Below are positions 3,457 through 55,934 of a stretch of 64,000 nucleotides of DNA, one piece after another. This DNA comes from an uncultured Coriobacteriaceae bacterium (GTDB taxonomy: Bacteria; Actinomycetota; Coriobacteriia; Coriobacteriales; Coriobacteriaceae). Both the position numbers and the translations under genes were made by a program. The notes under the pieces were generated by a model that saw nothing but the letters and a program-made list of their open reading frames with translations, had not been told where the DNA came from and ran no database searches. Location of the stretch: positions 94,385-158,384 of the forward strand of contig CALUIM010000008.1 in NCBI GenBank assembly GCA_944320725.1, written 5' to 3'. Within the stretch, counting starts at the first letter, position 1. Each line of letters opens with the position of its first letter.

Positions 3457-3975
3457 CTATGACGCCCACACCACGCGGCCGTCCCGGCGCGGCTTGGGCT
3501 CGGGCTCTTCTGCCGGCCAACCGAGAATGCAGTTACCGATACCCTCGTAATCGCCGTCGACGCCGAGCTCGGAGAGCACCTGCTTGAACTCAGGCAACTC
3601 GAAGGTCTCCTTGGCCCGATGAATCCAGCAGCTACCGAGGCCCACCGTGCTCGCCGCAAGCATGAGGTTGCCCATCACGAGCGAGCCGTCGTACACATGC
3701 GTGGGAACATCTCGCGGGGCCAGCACCACGAGCACCACGGGAGCACCGTAGAACGGGTCGGCCTCGACACCCATCACCTTCGCATTGGCGGCAGCGAGCG
3801 TATCGCGCAGCGCGCGATCGGTGATGGCAAGGATGATGGGCGACTGCTTGCCCATACCGCTCGCCGCCCAAAGCCCCGCCTCGACAACCTGCTCGATGAG
3901 CTCTCGTGGAACCTCGTCCTGCTTGTACACACGGACACTGCGCCGGTCACACATCGCCTTGATGATATCGTTCAT
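3457..3975 (-). CDS. Nitroreductase family protein
   Basis: RRSVRVY motif near the N-terminus and a size of 172 aa fit the small FMN nitroreductase fold. Confidence 0.85.
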   Translation of the reverse strand: MNDIIKAMCDRRSVRVYKQDEVPRELIEQVVEAGLWAASGMGKQSPIILAITDRALRDTLAAANAKVMGVEADPFYGAPVVLVVLAPRDVPTHVYDGSLVMGNLMLAASTVGLGSCWIHRAKETFELPEFKQVLSELGVDGDYEGIGNCILGWPAEEPEPKPRRDGRVVWAS

Positions 3976-5213: not shown

Positions 5214-6779
5214 CTAGCGCCTCCCCTCGGCTGTTGTGCTATCCGACTCGGCGATGAGCGAACGCAGCGCCTCGCGGTCGATGCGCAACGCGTCACCGCC
5301 CGCCTCGGGAGCAGCCAGCGGCTCAACATCGCACCCCCCACGCCGCGGCTGGGCGCCGCCGCGCTCACGATAGCGCTGGCTATGCGCCGTATAGAGGTTG
5401 ATGACCAGCACGACGATAAAGCTGAACAGGATGACCACGATGACCCAGAACAGCGCGACATCGGTGTTGCCGCTCATCCACTCGAAATAGATGGCGATGG
5501 GAATGGTCTGCGTTACCCCGGCATAGTTGCCCGCAAAAAACAGGGTGCACCCGAACTCGCCCATCGCGCGCGCAAACGCAAGCACCGTGCCCGCCGCGAT
5601 CGAGGGCCAGGCAAGCGGCATCATAAGCCGAGCGAAGATGCGCGTCTCAGACCATCCGAGCGTGCGCGCGGCATCGAGCATGGTGGCATCGAGCGACTCG
5701 AAGGCGCCGAGCGCCGTGCGGTACATGAGCGGAAAGCTCACCACGATAGCCGATATGACCGCGGCCTCCCACGTGAACACGAGCGAAATACCATGGTCGA
5801 CGAGCCATTGCCCCACCGGTGTCGACCGCCCAAACAACAACAGGAGCAGAAAGCCGCACACGGTGGGCGGCAAGACCATCGGGATGGTGAACACCGAATC
5901 AAGGATGCCCTTGAGTCTGCTCGACGTGCCCATGGTGCGCCAGGCGGCAAGAAGCCCCAACACGAATGTGATGACGAGCGCCACCGCACTTGTCTTGAGC
6001 GACACCCAAAACGGCCGATAGTCTACCCCCGAGAAAAACGTGTCCAGCTGCTCGAGGAGACCAGGCGCCGCCGCAACCGGCACCTCGGATGCCGGAACGA
6101 GACGTGCGCCGTCGCACCAAAGCGCGCCGGCAGAAAGATCGAGCCCTGCCGCTTCGGCGCCCGCGGTGGGCTCCTCGCCCTCACGAAGCGCCGCTGGCTG
6201 CACCGAGCAGTACCGCCCCTCGCCGGCATCAACTGCAAACCGGTACGTATACAACCCGATGGTCATAGTCTGCTCTTCGGTCACGATGACCTCGCGGCTG
6301 GCTGCGATATCCGCGATGAGCGTGCCCCCGCGCGAAGCCTCCTTGTCGAGGTGCTCAACAAGGGTGATGAGGGCATCGCGCTGCGCGGCATCCTCAAGAT
6401 CAAGCCCTGCGTCTTCTGCCGCCGCACGATCCACGTAGATGATGACCGCCTCATTGGTAGCAAGTGCAACCAGCGTCGCATCGTCGGGAAGCGGATAGCG
6501 ATAACCAAGGTCGATATCGCTAACGGGCCGCAGCGCGCCTTTCTGGTAGCGCTTGAACCCCACAAGGCCGATTCCGGCCTCCTCGTTCAGCGCAGACCCC
6601 TCCTCGGTCACCGCCGCCTCGGTCTTCGCCAACGCGACCATCGGCACGCTCAGGCACGCGCATGCAACCACCAGCACAGCGATAATCAGCGCGAACGCGC
6701 GCGCGGCACACGTGCCGAGCGGCCCCGGCACGAAACCGGAGCCGCTCTCGGGGTGCGTTTTGATCTTCGAGAAGCGCAT
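5214..6779 (-). CDS. modB: Molybdate ABC transporter permease with a long N-terminal extracytoplasmic extension
   Basis: The C-terminal roughly 230 aa match the ModB/CysTW permease core (EAA-loop-like LDAARTLGWSETRIFARLMMPLA). The N-terminal roughly 265 aa consist of one TM helix plus an unassigned domain. Confidence 0.85.
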   Translation of the reverse strand: MRFSKIKTHPESGSGFVPGPLGTCAARAFALIIAVLVVACACLSVPMVALAKTEAAVTEEGSALNEEAGIGLVGFKRYQKGALRPVSDIDLGYRYPLPDDATLVALATNEAVIIYVDRAAAEDAGLDLEDAAQRDALITLVEHLDKEASRGGTLIADIAASREVIVTEEQTMTIGLYTYRFAVDAGEGRYCSVQPAALREGEEPTAGAEAAGLDLSAGALWCDGARLVPASEVPVAAAPGLLEQLDTFFSGVDYRPFWVSLKTSAVALVITFVLGLLAAWRTMGTSSRLKGILDSVFTIPMVLPPTVCGFLLLLLFGRSTPVGQWLVDHGISLVFTWEAAVISAIVVSFPLMYRTALGAFESLDATMLDAARTLGWSETRIFARLMMPLAWPSIAAGTVLAFARAMGEFGCTLFFAGNYAGVTQTIPIAIYFEWMSGNTDVALFWVIVVILFSFIVVLVINLYTAHSQRYRERGGAQPRRGGCDVEPLAAPEAGGDALRIDREALRSLIAESDSTTAEGRR

Positions 6780-52319: not shown

Positions 52320-52589
52320 GGGTCTCCTCTGGAATCTTTCCTATGCATCGGGCGGCACGCGCCCGGATTCGTTGCACTCGGTCCGCCGGAACGCTCCTGG
52401 CGCTCACGGACCGTCTCCATTGTACGGGTTCTCGGCATCCGCGCCCACCCACGCGAGCAACGCGCCAGAAACTCCAGACATGGCCGCGCAGCACCACCCG
52501 CCGGCATCGCCGCCAGCGGTTATGGGTACGATAGAGCAGACGATAAACCCACCCAATACCCTGCGGGCGCACCCGCACGAGGAGCAACT

Positions 52590-54032
52590 ATGCGTTCGGA
52601 CACCCCGGCACCCAACCGCATCCCCAGCTTCACCGGCTCGTTTCGCGAGAACCTCGATGCCCTCATCGACATCCTGGAACGCGGCGACAAAGACGCCGGT
52701 GGCAAGAAGATCGGCTTCGAGCTCGAGCGTATCCTCGTAGATTGCACCGGCACCACGCTGCCCTTCGCGGGCGAACGCGGTGTGTCGGCCCTCGTCCATG
52801 AGCTGGCGCACAACATCCCTGATGTTGAAACCTCCATCATCGACGGACATCTCCTCGGTCTCGCCTGGATCGAGCATACCGAGCTCGAGGATGTCGAGGT
52901 GAACCTCTCGCTCGAGCCCTCCGCCCAGCTTGAGATATCGGCTGGCCCCGCCCACACGGTCAAGGCGCTCTTTGATGCCGTAAGCGCATTCGACGCGCGT
53001 GTCACCCGCGCCCTCGAGTGCCTCGGCATCGATGCCGAACTCGTAGCGGCAGGCTACAACCCCTTCGTCATAAGCCCGCTCGACCTCGAGCTCATCCCCA
53101 AAGAGCGCTACCGCGACATGGACCGCTATCTCTCCCGCCGCGGCCGCTACGCGCGCGACATGATGCGCTGCACCGCCTCCACCCAAGTTTCGCTCGATTA
53201 CGAAAGCGAACAGGACGCGGCGCGCATCTACCGCATGGCCACGTTGCTGGGGCCGGTGTTTGCCTTCCTCTTCGACAACGCACCCGTCTTTCGCGGCGCG
53301 GCGTCCGCCGGCATGGCGCGGTCGCGCATCTGGCACCATGTGGACGTAGATCGCTGCGGCATCGTGCCCGGTTCGCTTGAAGGCCTCACGTTCGAGGACT
53401 ACATCCTGTGGGTTTCCTCGGTCAAGCCGATTCTTTTCACCGACGAGCACCACGTGACCTGCGCCACGGGCGACCGCTACACCCGCGACATCATGTCCGA
53501 GCGCCCCCTTACCCGCTCCGAGCTGCTGCATCTGCTCTCGATGGTCTTTCCCAACGTGCGCCTCAAGGGCTTTGTGGAGCTGCGCGAGATGGACTCCCTG
53601 CCGCCGCGCCTCGCCGCCGCGTGCACGAGTTTCACCGGCGCCCTCTTCTATGACAAATGCCTCGAGACCAAACTTGCGCATCGGCTGAGCGCATGGTTGC
53701 CAGACGGCTTTGCCGGCATCGACGAAAACGACGCGGTGTTGGCGCGCCTGCACCTCGAGGAACAGGGCTGGGATGCCACCGTGTACGGCATGCCCGTGTG
53801 TGCCATCGTGGATGCACTCGTGGCGATTGCGCGCGAGAACGTCGAGGAAGATGCCGGGTGCACCGCACCGGATAGCACGGTCGCCGATACCATCGAGGTG
53901 CCTGTCGTACGCGCCTCGGGTGTCGCTCGCGCCTTCGATCGGGAGAGCATCGATCTGCTTGAGCGCATGTGGTCGAAGCGCCTGCTGCCGCGCGACATCG
54001 ATGAGCAAGGTATTCTGCCGCGCCTGAGCTAA
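52590..54032 (+). CDS. gshA: Glutamate--cysteine ligase
   Basis: FELERILVD and NLSLEPSAQLEISAGP motifs of the gamma-GCS family. ATG 52590 after GAGGAG. The longer ORF from 51693 is antisense to the neighbouring gene. Confidence 0.75.
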   Translation: MRSDTPAPNRIPSFTGSFRENLDALIDILERGDKDAGGKKIGFELERILVDCTGTTLPFAGERGVSALVHELAHNIPDVETSIIDGHLLGLAWIEHTELEDVEVNLSLEPSAQLEISAGPAHTVKALFDAVSAFDARVTRALECLGIDAELVAAGYNPFVISPLDLELIPKERYRDMDRYLSRRGRYARDMMRCTASTQVSLDYESEQDAARIYRMATLLGPVFAFLFDNAPVFRGAASAGMARSRIWHHVDVDRCGIVPGSLEGLTFEDYILWVSSVKPILFTDEHHVTCATGDRYTRDIMSERPLTRSELLHLLSMVFPNVRLKGFVELREMDSLPPRLAAACTSFTGALFYDKCLETKLAHRLSAWLPDGFAGIDENDAVLARLHLEEQGWDATVYGMPVCAIVDALVAIARENVEEDAGCTAPDSTVADTIEVPVVRASGVARAFDRESIDLLERMWSKRLLPRDIDEQGILPRLS

Positions 54033-54128
54033 CCGCCGCGCGACGCCGCCGGTGCACACGCCAACACCCCGACCGCTCCACGGGATGCCCACAAGTTGCG
54101 CCATTCCACAACTTTCTGAAAAAAGTCC

Positions 54129-54157
54129 TTGCGCGAGCGCGGGTGTTTCCGTATTAT
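54129..54157 (+). promoter_or_regulatory. Putative promoter of tRNA-Glu copy 1
   Basis: TTGCGC, a 17-nt spacer, then TATTAT. Confidence 0.5.
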
Positions 54158-54191
54158 TCTTACTCGCACAAGGACAAGCGCCTTGTCACAT

Positions 54192-54268
54192 GGCCCGTTC
54201 GTCTAGCGGTTCAGGACGCCGCCCTCTCAAGGCGGAGATCACCAGTTCGAATCTGGTACGGGCTACCA
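54192..54268 (+). tRNA. tRNA-Glu (anticodon CTC), copy 1
   Basis: Acceptor GGCCCGT/ACGGGCT, anticodon stem CCGCC/GGCGG with loop CTCTCAA, T-arm AGTTCGAATCT, encoded CCA. Confidence 0.9.
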
Positions 54269-54277
54269 AGAACTTCC

Positions 54278-54300
54278 AGGCTCCCCCAGGGAGCCTTTTT
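54278..54300 (+). terminator. Intrinsic terminator after tRNA-Glu copy 1
   Basis: AGGCTCCC-CCA-GGGAGCCT followed by TTTTT. Confidence 0.8.
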
Positions 54301-54388
54301 CGTATCGCGAGTCAGCGCTGCCCATGCGCACCACAGGTGCCGGCAACTCAGACAGCCCATCTCCTCGCCACTTTTTTCAAATTAGGGC

Positions 54389-54417
54389 TTGCGCGGACCT
54401 GCAGCCTGCCGTAATAT
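54389..54417 (+). promoter_or_regulatory. Putative promoter of the tRNA-Gln/tRNA-Glu pair
   Basis: TTGCGC, a 17-nt spacer, then TAATAT. Same architecture as the promoter at 54129. Confidence 0.5.
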
Positions 54418-54457
54418 ACTTTCTTGCGCAAAGCCTCGCTTTGCGTGCATGGATCAC

Positions 54458-54531
54458 TGGGATGTCGTCTAATGGCAGGACAGCGGATTCTGGTTCCGTC
54501 AATGGGGGTTCGACTCCCTCCATCCCAGCCA
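54458..54531 (+). tRNA. tRNA-Gln (anticodon CTG)
   Basis: Acceptor TGGGATG/CATCCCA, anticodon loop TTCTGGT, T-arm GGTTCGACTCC, encoded CCA. Confidence 0.9.
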
Positions 54532-54540
54532 TTCGCATAT

Positions 54541-54617
54541 GGCCCGTTCGTCTAGCGGTTCAGGACGCCGCCCTCTCAAGGCGGAGATCACCAGTTCGAA
54601 TCTGGTACGGGCTACCA
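54541..54617 (+). tRNA. tRNA-Glu (anticodon CTC), copy 2
   Basis: Identical in sequence to copy 1. Confidence 0.9.
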
Positions 54618-54626
54618 AGAACTTCC

Positions 54627-54649
54627 AGGCTCCCCCAGGGAGCCTTTTT
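54627..54649 (+). terminator. Intrinsic terminator after tRNA-Glu copy 2
   Basis: Identical to the hairpin at 54278-54300. Confidence 0.8.
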
Positions 54650-54782
54650 CGTATCGCAACAACGCCATTCAGACCATAGTGCGCCCTCCAATCTATAACC
54701 GCTGCGCTGGAAGCACGGTCTATCGACTTCGACTCACTACGATGGCACACTGCGCCCCCGGCCCTCCAATCACGACACCCTC

Positions 54783-55186
54783 ATGGTCACGAGAAGAGGG
54801 ATATGGGCAACGGAAAGCCGAGCATTTCGCTCCGATGGTCATGACAGGCGAGGTATGGGTTGAAGCGACGTTGCATGGCGCAGGCAATGGTCACAGCAAT
54901 GGGGTTATGGGTGGAAATGACGTTGCATGACGCAAGTAGTGGTCACGGCGACGGGGTTATGGGCGGCTGAGATGCGCGCAGGCGGGCTTGACGTTCGTTA
55001 CGGCGCCTGAGAAGCCTGAAAAGAGCTTCTCAGGCGCGCTCAGTTGCATGCACTTCGCCCATACGTCTTACACGATGACCACAGGAACGCATGTGCTACG
55101 GCTGTGGCACCCATACGTGCCCTCTCGTGACCAGCAGCCGTGCTCTCCTACGCGTTTCTCACCCATATGTGTCTCTTCGTGACCAC
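54783..55186. repeat. Phased array of a 26-bp bipartite motif with a 52-bp period, 4 direct and 3 inverted copies
   Basis: Direct copies RTGGTCAY-N11-TATGGGY start at 54783, 54835, 54887 and 54939. Reverse-complement copies start at 55057, 55109 and 55161. Confidence 0.85.
55003..55037. other. Perfect 13-bp stem hairpin near the centre of the phased array
   Basis: GCGCCTGAGAAGC-CTGAAAAGA-GCTTCTCAGGCGC. No U-tract on either strand. Confidence 0.8.
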
Positions 55187-55235
55187 GCTTTCCGGTGAGG
55201 CTGAGAGCAAAGGGCTGAGAATAGAGAACTGTGCG

Positions 55236-55934
55236 TCACAAGTGCTCGATGCGCGTGGCAACGCGTGCAAGCAGCGCCGGCGAATGAGAGACGATCACGA
55301 GTCCCATGGCGCGCGCCGCAGCGATCTCCATGACCGCATGCCACACGCTCGCCTGCGTAACGGCATCGAGCATCGCCGTCATCTCATCGCAGATGAGGTA
55401 GCGCGGCTCGACCAAGAGGGCGCGCACGATGGCAAGGCGCATGAGCTCGCCGCCCGAGAGCTCGTGCGGAAAGCGGCTCAGCCATGCCGGCTGAACGCCA
55501 AGGGCGTCGAACAGCCCGCGATGAACCTCATGCAATGCAGCGGGTCGATTCCCGCTCCTCGCGCCATCATGCCATGCCTCCGCCAACGATGCGCCAAGCC
55601 GCATAGCAGGATCGAAGGCCTGCTCGGGATGCTGCCAGATGAGCTGCACCGGCCGCGGTGCAGCTGCATCGTTATGCCGAGAACCCGGAAGCACACCGCC
55701 GAAACGCGCGCCGCGCGGGTGCTGGCCGCCTGCAACCACCATGCCATCAACCGTAACGCTCCCCTGCCGCGGCGCGATGTAGCCTGCTAGGATGCGGCAG
55801 AATGTCGTCTTGCCCGCTCCCGAGGGTGCCGCAAGGGCAACGCGCTCGCTCGGCTCCACGCGCAACGAGAGGCCTCCATAGAGCTCACTGCCACCTGGAT
55901 AAGCAAAATGGATATCTTGGGCAACCAAACTCAT
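55236..55934 (-). CDS. ABC transporter ATP-binding protein (NikE/OppF-like)
   Basis: Walker A APSGAGKTTF, signature LSGGELMRL, Walker B ICDEMTAMLD. ATGA overlap with the upstream ATPase gene. Confidence 0.85.
   Translation of the reverse strand: MSLVAQDIHFAYPGGSELYGGLSLRVEPSERVALAAPSGAGKTTFCRILAGYIAPRQGSVTVDGMVVAGGQHPRGARFGGVLPGSRHNDAAAPRPVQLIWQHPEQAFDPAMRLGASLAEAWHDGARSGNRPAALHEVHRGLFDALGVQPAWLSRFPHELSGGELMRLAIVRALLVEPRYLICDEMTAMLDAVTQASVWHAVMEIAAARAMGLVIVSHSPALLARVATRIEHL

Follow-up and report, generated by a model that had tools for sequence, protein, structure and literature searches.

The window analysed here, i.e., the whole 64-kb stretch of DNA, carries in a gap between genes a regular element, bordered on one side by a tRNA-Glu(CTC)/Gln/Glu cluster that ends in a terminator, on the other by the 3′ end of an ABC operon. 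A first-pass annotation had described in this gap seven units of the motif RTGGTCAY-N11-TATGGGY, four direct and three inverted, around a hairpin. All seven units were present, and the rest of the 64 kb was devoid of copies; six of them matched the pattern strictly (54783, 54835, 54887 and 54939 on the plus strand; 55057 and 55161 on the minus strand), but the copy at 55109 on the minus strand has C as its first base where the motif has R. The parts of the element and its closest neighbours are as follows:

54541–54645, plus strand: second tRNA-Glu(CTC) and intrinsic terminator, 3′ end towards the element and 138 bp from it
54784–55185, no strand assigned: whole element (left arm, centre, right arm), from outer TGGTCA to outer TGACCA; similarity to paralogues and orthologues begins and ends there
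54783–54808, plus strand: unit 1, outermost of the left arm, ATGGTCAC-GAGAAGAGGGA-TATGGGC; 32.6 bits, same in the orthologues L028, L030 and L031
54835–54860, plus strand: unit 2, ATGGTCAT-GACAGGCGAGG-TATGGGT; 39.0 bits
54887–54912, plus strand: unit 3, ATGGTCAC-AGCAATGGGGT-TATGGGT; motif match, 73% identical to unit 2 over 52 bp
54939–54964, plus strand: unit 4, innermost of the left arm, GTGGTCAC-GGCGACGGGGT-TATGGGC; 20.2 bits
55003–55037, no strand assigned: central hairpin, perfect 13-bp stem GCGCCTGAGAAGC / GCTTCTCAGGCGC with a 9-nt loop; equalled in 0 of 200 shuffles
55057–55082, minus strand: unit 5′, innermost of the right arm, GTGGTCAT-CGTGTAAGACG-TATGGGC; 30.7 bits
55109–55134, minus strand: unit 6′, CTGGTCAC-GAGAGGGCACG-TATGGGT, first base C instead of R; 40.6 bits
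55161–55186, minus strand: unit 7′, outermost of the right arm, GTGGTCAC-GAAGAGACACA-TATGGGT; 47.4 bits
55236–55934, minus strand: final gene of a peptide/nickel-type ABC operon (ATPase, 232 aa, PF00005), stop codon 50 bp from the element

With regard to the surrounding genes, this ATPase gene overlaps the upstream ATPase gene of the operon by an ATGA start/stop. The tRNA-Glu(CTC) and its intrinsic terminator are part of a 122-bp duplicate (54187–54308 and 54536–54657, 99% identical and 349 bp apart) which brackets tRNA-Gln. In the clade of the window, the tRNA cluster and a GCS2 glutamate-cysteine ligase-like gene run towards the ABC operon from the opposite strand; the cluster of Collinsella sp. 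An268 (L037) and that of another relative (L042) are co-directional with the operon (window 54032–55236 compared with L037 4669–5877 and L042 3633–3939). Since this orientation differs, the element sits at a junction of that rearrangement. A 566-aa ORF antisense to the GCS2 gene (52404–54104, minus strand), called as a gene on a public contig (L001 11831–13531), has no Pfam match on record and is almost certainly a high-GC artefact. Pfam scans of the window ORFs and of the neighbours of paralogous copies revealed housekeeping genes only, with no linked DNA-binding, transposase, integrase, rep or par gene. The gap had been described as free of credible ORFs, which agrees with the orthologous sequences, as these differ by indels of 1, 3, 19 and 52 bp. 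A promoter was also considered and rejected, given that TGGTCA and TATGGG are just 12 bp apart and a promoter scan returned no site.

Six exact matches to the motif were counted in the 64 kb, in comparison with 0.01 expected, and seven when up to two mismatches were allowed, with 0.37 expected; no shuffle equalled these values of six and seven, respectively. The 52-bp phase proposed at first pass proved exact in both arms. In a scan with a weight matrix built solely from the copies of another genome, the seven units scored 20–47 bits, the next best site in the 64 kb reached −3, and matches were confined to 54784–55185, so that the window holds a single element. The resemblance of units 2 and 3 over their full 52 bp is in line with the similarity noted previously between the segments that separate units 2/3 and 3/4. 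We also detected a third, weaker box, CGYRGCA, at unit positions 34–40, which was absent from the first description.

In order to find further copies, a pattern of two phased units was used to scan one genome per species in a collection of 185,579 species. It matched a single genome, the uncultured Coriobacteriaceae MAG BRZ_MF_bin44, at eight loci on eight different contigs. A metagenome scan added five human-gut contigs with the element; four other matches were unrelated tandem repeats, among them a 22-bp tandem array, GGGGTCACATAGTTGCTGGTAT, in 12–15 copies on lower-GC contigs (L020 2846–3190 and L022 2192–2475), which fits the pattern by chance. Neither plasmid and phage records, searched by similarity, nor viral contigs, scanned with the pattern, yielded an element. 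The species of the window contig is related to, but distinct from, that of BRZ_MF_bin44, and an identical locus was recovered from ten samples. As the material consists of one MAG in 8-kb pieces, short metagenome contigs and the 64-kb window, all copy numbers are lower bounds. The literature and Rfam gave no description of such repeats, and this is therefore apparently a hitherto undescribed family from uncultured gut Coriobacteriaceae.

At every true locus, plus-strand sites come first and minus-strand sites follow, so that sites always point inward. Complete copies have three or four inward-facing sites in each arm, usually three, while three loci have one and two. Same-arm spacings, by our count, were 52 bp in 46 of 52 instances, the others being 51 bp (four), 53 bp (one) and 84 bp (one), and both arms were contained within 260–405 bp at all 13 loci. 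The 84-bp value stems from an extra plus-strand unit in the paralogue L012 (2948–2973), which follows the hairpin at a distance of 84 bp from unit 3 and precedes the first minus-strand unit by 55 bp; it was the only site found off the 52-bp lattice, and about 130 kb of sequence contained no solitary site. Elements start with TGGTCA and end with TGACCA, with flanks unrelated between copies, and no target-site duplication was seen beside these termini in nine copies, although it could have decayed in old ones. All loci are intergenic and lie among housekeeping genes such as rpoC, clpX/valS, tyrS, the ribosomal protein L24 gene, engB and feoA, usually 38–166 bp past a stop codon and often between convergent genes. 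In one case, a relative (L021 1–1086) of L018 (1107–6142) lacks about 4 kb with PTS transporter genes some 90 bp upstream of the orthologous element, which places a rearrangement breakpoint close to the repeat.

These observations changed the view of the window array as specific to its tRNA-adjacent site, because the same architecture was found at at least eight unrelated intergenic loci, at none of which tRNA genes were found nearby. The first-pass annotation had also named a dispersed, unphased REP- or MITE-like motif as the finding that would speak against a phased array; the motif is dispersed, but its phasing is kept.

A profile of 54 units consisted of TGGTCAYGA (positions 1–9), TATGGGYG (19–26), the weaker CGYRGCA (34–40) and a semi-conserved GRSRS (13–17), with no information at any other position. 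The resulting asymmetric site of about 40 bp reads TGGTCAYGA-N3-GRSRS-N-TATGGGYG-N7-CGYRGCA; its part GA-N3-GRSRS accounts for the purine-rich central 11 bp pointed out earlier. The conserved boxes are non-palindromic, and the units lack internal pairing. Outside the boxes, paralogous arms showed a median identity of 31%, which is that of random sequences, and therefore no recent burst of copying has taken place. Within the unit, a 17.3-bp harmonic, corresponding to three boxes per unit, dominates the information-content spectrum, and the 10.4-bp harmonic is weak; contact with one face of the helix within a site was thus not supported.

The age of individual copies could be assessed at orthologous loci. 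Three loci of the MAG have orthologues in a species about 80% identical, and in these pairs 215 of the 224 box positions were identical (96%; Fisher p = 4e-18), compared to 78% for the central 11 bp, 70% between the boxes and 60% for the flanks. At the window locus, the array was present 50 bp past the stop codon, with the same inner distance between arms, in each of the orthologues, whose ABC ATPases have protein identities of 81, 75, 68 and 67%. Their boxes are 94–98% identical to those of the window, the non-box positions 79–80% and coding DNA 76–83%. Indels within the array were restricted to one single base and one whole 52-bp unit, the latter being an additional unit in the left arm of the window with respect to four orthologues (4+3 vs. 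3+3; gap at alignment columns 360–411), and the neighbouring spacer showed 3- and 19-bp indels. The array was absent next to ABC orthologues of 63% identity or less. As two of these have the tRNA cluster after the operon but turned the other way, such distant relatives do not provide a clean comparison of filled and empty sites. Across the contigs of the window locus, no presence/absence polymorphism was observed, and the orientation of the centre was the same in all 17 contigs, from many samples and four lineages, with no sign of inversion. Because the array persists across lineages with conservation specific to the boxes, the alignments mark the element of the window locus as old and vertically inherited, with boxes and lattice under purifying selection. 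Thus, the conservation of motif ends and 52-bp spacing in relatives, suggested as a check at first pass, was observed.

Other arrangements were noted on further contigs. Collinsella sp. An268 (L037), a relative that lacks the 52-bp element, has downstream of the same tRNA Glu-Gln-Glu cluster (approximately 5403–5580) six irregularly spaced copies of another motif, the 14-bp GGCRGATTGYATAC; three of them are direct and three inverted, and together they may represent an analogous cluster of protein sites. In L042 (approximately 3655–3745), also a relative without the element, a near-perfect palindrome with stems of about 40 bp directly follows the stop codon of the ABC operon. L039 (approximately 2615–2650) has a TGGTCT-TC-AGACCA palindrome, then TATAGGGT, upstream of an RDD-family gene; its likeness to the element boxes is superficial, and it is a single operator-like palindrome.

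Next to the 52-bp lattice, a further regularity emerged from the distance between arms, measured from first T to first T of the two innermost opposed sites. In ten paralogues, it amounted to 78, 89, 141, 141, 162, 162, 163, 202, 203 and 214 bp, i.e., values that differ by 11, 21, 41, 52 bp and so on. Their circular resultant peaked at R = 0.93 for a period of 10.4 bp, exactly 52/5. This R was never reached in 20,000 random Monte-Carlo sets (p < 1e-4 for the ten elements, some of which possibly share ancestry), and the six distinct classes alone gave p = 1e-4. Both quantisations, of 52 and of 10.4 bp, therefore indicate that the B-form helical turn is the unit of spacing within as well as between arms. 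For the choice between DNA and RNA we regard this result as decisive, as it suggests that a protein complex assembles on the duplex and requires the arms to keep a constant rotational register, the simplest form being a loop that joins them. The first-pass idea of proteins bound to phased sites along the duplex is in agreement with the conserved boxes and lattice and with the quantised inter-arm distance.

The centre of the element was more variable. Stems of 13–15 bp, never reached in 200 shuffles of the centre, were found in five of ten elements, weaker ones in two and none in three; hence, elements can do without a hairpin. In the window, the perfect 13-bp stem reported initially was verified at 55003–55015/55025–55037, 9.5 bp off the midpoint of the innermost sites. 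In three orthologous sets, substitutions on one side of the stem are compensated on the other, so that pairing is maintained; in the window set, the changes include one C-G to T-A double change, and one C-to-T change which pairs (U·G) solely on the minus, i.e., ABC-operon, strand. A T-run follows the stem of L018. The hairpins probably act as terminators or stabilisers for upstream genes. In addition, the window element and the paralogue L012 have nearly identical central hairpins, with similarity that stops at the outer TGGTCA, which suggests that whole elements, hairpin included, were once copied.

These hairpin features would also suit an element that works at the RNA level at gene 3′ ends, where an RNA-binding protein reads the boxes and the hairpin terminates or stabilises the mRNA. 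The strong stems in half of the elements, their compensatory changes, the wobble-compatible change on the operon strand, the T-run of L018 and the position of the copies 38–166 bp past genes, often convergent ones, are all in favour of this explanation; moreover, as sites point inward, a transcript from either side would have three sense copies of UGGUCAY-N11-UAUGGGY, then the hairpin. Nevertheless, we regard it as rather unlikely and, as a 3′-UTR role for the boxes, as a weaker rival than the DNA–protein explanation. The neighbours of L017 and L023 are co-directional, so that one arm at most would be sense, yet both arms are equally conserved, and in the 1+2 elements it is the upstream (sense) arm that is shorter. 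Quantisation of the inter-arm distance at 10.4 bp characterises B-form duplex DNA, as opposed to RNA, and a hairpin is missing from three of the ten elements. Among 85 units, the 52-nt unit showed no column pairs that covary or stack, compensatory change being confined to the central hairpin, and Rfam returned tRNAs only (the region at E up to 10; eight paralogous loci at gathering score). A long interrupted RNA duplex between the arms, also put forward in the first-pass annotation, or an equivalent DNA cruciform, is very unlikely. The folding energies of −199 kcal/mol on the plus strand (z = −5.5) and −178 kcal/mol on the minus strand (z = −3.9) and the complementary boxes of the two arms fit such pairing, but mirror complementarity fell from 89% in the boxes to 45% over the central 11 nt and 41% over the spacers, and the modest z-scores are explained because the boxes alone are complementary between arms. 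Furthermore, boxes are conserved in sequence and do not covary, and arm sizes are often unequal (4+3, 3+4, 1+2). The lack of complementarity outside the boxes and of covariation in the units contradicts this structure.

A different possibility is a selfish, still-mobile MITE, whose arms would be transposase-binding ends with no role for the host and whose conserved boxes would reflect that intact copies transpose. Dispersed copies with one architecture, TG…CA termini with three or four sites per end as in Tn7 or Mu ends, the whole-unit paralogy between the window element and L012, and helical phasing of a very short element, as expected for the synapsis of ends, are consistent with it. However, orthologous positions are kept where the neighbouring protein is 67–81% identical, and there the boxes alone are preserved; selection for transposability cannot protect a fixed copy. 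If transposon ends were purely selfish, fixed copies would not be expected to show purifying selection. Paralogues are, besides, saturated outside the boxes (31% identity), neither presence/absence polymorphism nor a target duplication nor an autonomous partner was seen, and the plasmid, phage and viral collections contained no match, for which reasons we consider current mobility quite improbable. One could also think of a unique array that goes with the tRNA cluster, be it a set of replication iterons, a partition site, an invertible switch or an attachment site flanked by arm sites for an integrase. In favour of this are the facts that the element adjoins tRNA genes, that arm-type sites of attP likewise stand in opposed groups around a core, and that more distant relatives have the tRNA cluster in the opposite orientation to the ABC operon. 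Yet at least eight other loci share the architecture with no tRNA nearby, integrase, rep and par genes were absent among the window ORFs and examined neighbours, and the constant orientation of the centre in 17 contigs gave no sign of inversion; we give very little credence to this explanation, in all of its forms contradicted by the dispersed copies. Finally, a layout of 26-bp repeats and 26-bp spacers, with inter-box segments unrelated among copies, recalls a degenerate CRISPR-like array. Here, though, a single array has variable repeat centres, the arrays come as a facing pair with an exact period, the ‘spacers’ are passed on together with their locus, just three or four units occur at many loci, and the annotated neighbours include no cas gene. 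These features contradict a CRISPR array, which we practically dismiss.

Taken together, the element seems, with a fair balance of probability on this side, to be a docking platform for a predicted sequence-specific double-stranded DNA-binding protein, belonging to a lineage-restricted dispersed family of probable transposon ancestry that is now under purifying selection. The window copy at 54784–55185 is one member of this interspersed intergenic family, in which each element consists of two facing arrays of three or four sites of about 40 bp on a 52-bp lattice (five turns at 10.4 bp), separated by a variable centre that often harbours a strong hairpin. Such an element would act as double-stranded DNA: one sequence-specific protein would occupy every unit, all units of an arm would present the same face, and the two arms, in fixed rotational register, would probably be joined in a looped nucleoprotein complex across the centre of about 80–215 bp. 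This geometry resembles that of paired transposon ends with several transposase sites (Tn7-like elements, Mu, IS607-type), so the family may well have begun as a non-autonomous mobile element that was copied whole. Its present copies are old, with fixed, vertically inherited chromosomal positions just past gene 3′ ends, and as boxes and lattice are under purifying selection, we infer that the complex may now serve the host or a resident, possibly domesticated, protein.

A further step would be to see the elements as host-maintained sites of chromosomal architecture or insulation, at which looped complexes of one sequence-specific protein, possibly a domesticated transposase, form on the helically phased arrays past gene 3′ ends. 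We put this forward tentatively, as a possibility that is more doubtful than the docking platform itself. If true, bacteria would have in them an equivalent of CENP-B-box or insulator-type elements, and Actinobacteria a class of interspersed functional repeat that is new. What is conserved here are three short boxes, a five-turn lattice and a quantised arm distance, everything else being randomised at fixed loci, which would be the signature of a precise DNA–protein machine in an uncultured human-gut lineage. Naming the binder would tell whether a transposon-end architecture has been recruited for 3′-end insulation, nucleoid anchoring or recombination control. The family also offers a clean natural data set on the constraints that helical phasing places on nucleoprotein assembly, and illustrates that searches by motif plus geometry find repeat families that similarity searches miss.

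Among known systems, close parallels in layout are the ends of Tn7-like elements including CAST, of Mu and of IS21, where three or four asymmetric direct sites of 20–40 bp stand at each end, with the ends inverted, the outermost site at the terminus and 5′-TG…CA-3′ tips. Several direct sites per inverted end were present in all complete copies of our family. Tn7-like ends carry three transposase sites each with a spacing dependence of about 10 bp, and their function depends on the helical phase between sites (PMC10201428). Likewise, IS607-type ends, which are bound by filaments of the serine transposase TnpA, have several helically phased subterminal direct motifs and no target duplication; TnpA assembles a cooperative filament on one end and then captures the second (PMC6188088). 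The differences are nonetheless considerable. Tn7 ends are asymmetric, whereas both arms of the element follow the same strict 52-bp lattice. In contrast to Tn7-like, Mu and IS21 elements, the copies showed neither a target duplication of 5 bp nor a transposase gene, and no autonomous partner came to light; at the 13 loci examined, no copy had a tnsB-, MuA- or istA-type gene or arms kilobases apart. Nor was recent mobility apparent: at orthologous loci, purifying selection acts on copies that are fixed and ancient, and paralogues are 31% identical outside the boxes. The motifs of IS607 measure 9 bp, recur in increments of about 10–11 bp within some 60 bp of the end and have unrelated termini, whereas the units described here are tripartite 40-bp sites at 52 bp in symmetric arms, with no tnpA gene nearby. 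With a MITE, the window element shares its short, gene-free constitution.

Plasmid iterons and centromeres (R1 parC, F sopC, pBtoxis tubC), which the first-pass annotation had brought up, are similar in that phased sites for one protein, sometimes in two clusters, build a co-operative nucleoprotein structure. Those arrays, however, are single-copy, linked to rep or par genes and have periods of 11–43 bp, whereas the window element is one of many chromosomal copies and no such gene is linked to it. An integrase attachment site would be expected to have an adjacent integrase or island and a tRNA target; neighbours of this kind were absent, and the other copies do not lie beside tRNA genes. As for structured ncRNAs, neither a covariance-model match, other than to tRNAs, nor covariation within the units was obtained.

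With respect to repeats, the REP/BIME and REPIN-RAYT families of proteobacteria are dispersed and intergenic, usually just past gene 3′ ends, with modular oriented units and a long vertical inheritance; they are targets of host or domesticated proteins, and in transcripts their hairpins can have effects of their own. REPs themselves are palindromes of 20–40 bp whose function lies in the hairpin. The element is equally dispersed, intergenic, mostly past gene 3′ ends and vertically inherited, but its conserved boxes are non-palindromic and set on an exact lattice, and its hairpin is variable and dispensable. Unlike REPIN-RAYT systems, it belongs to an actinobacterium, and no RAYT (IS200/IS605-like Y1) gene was seen in the 8-kb MAG pieces and the 64-kb window. 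Pneumococcal BOX and neisserial NIME/dRS3 elements have variable numbers of repeated sub-units, and eukaryotic foldback transposons have long inverted arms of short tandem repeats. Their sub-units are alike over the whole length, in contrast to three short boxes per 52 bp here, and to our knowledge helical quantisation of the arm distance has not been described for any of them. What usually defines REP, BIME, BOX and MITE repeats is a hairpin or similarity over the full sequence, whereas boxes, lattice and a quantised arm distance define the present family. It belongs with the bacterial interspersed intergenic repeats and MITE-like elements, from which it is set apart by the conservation of motif plus geometry and by selection in situ.
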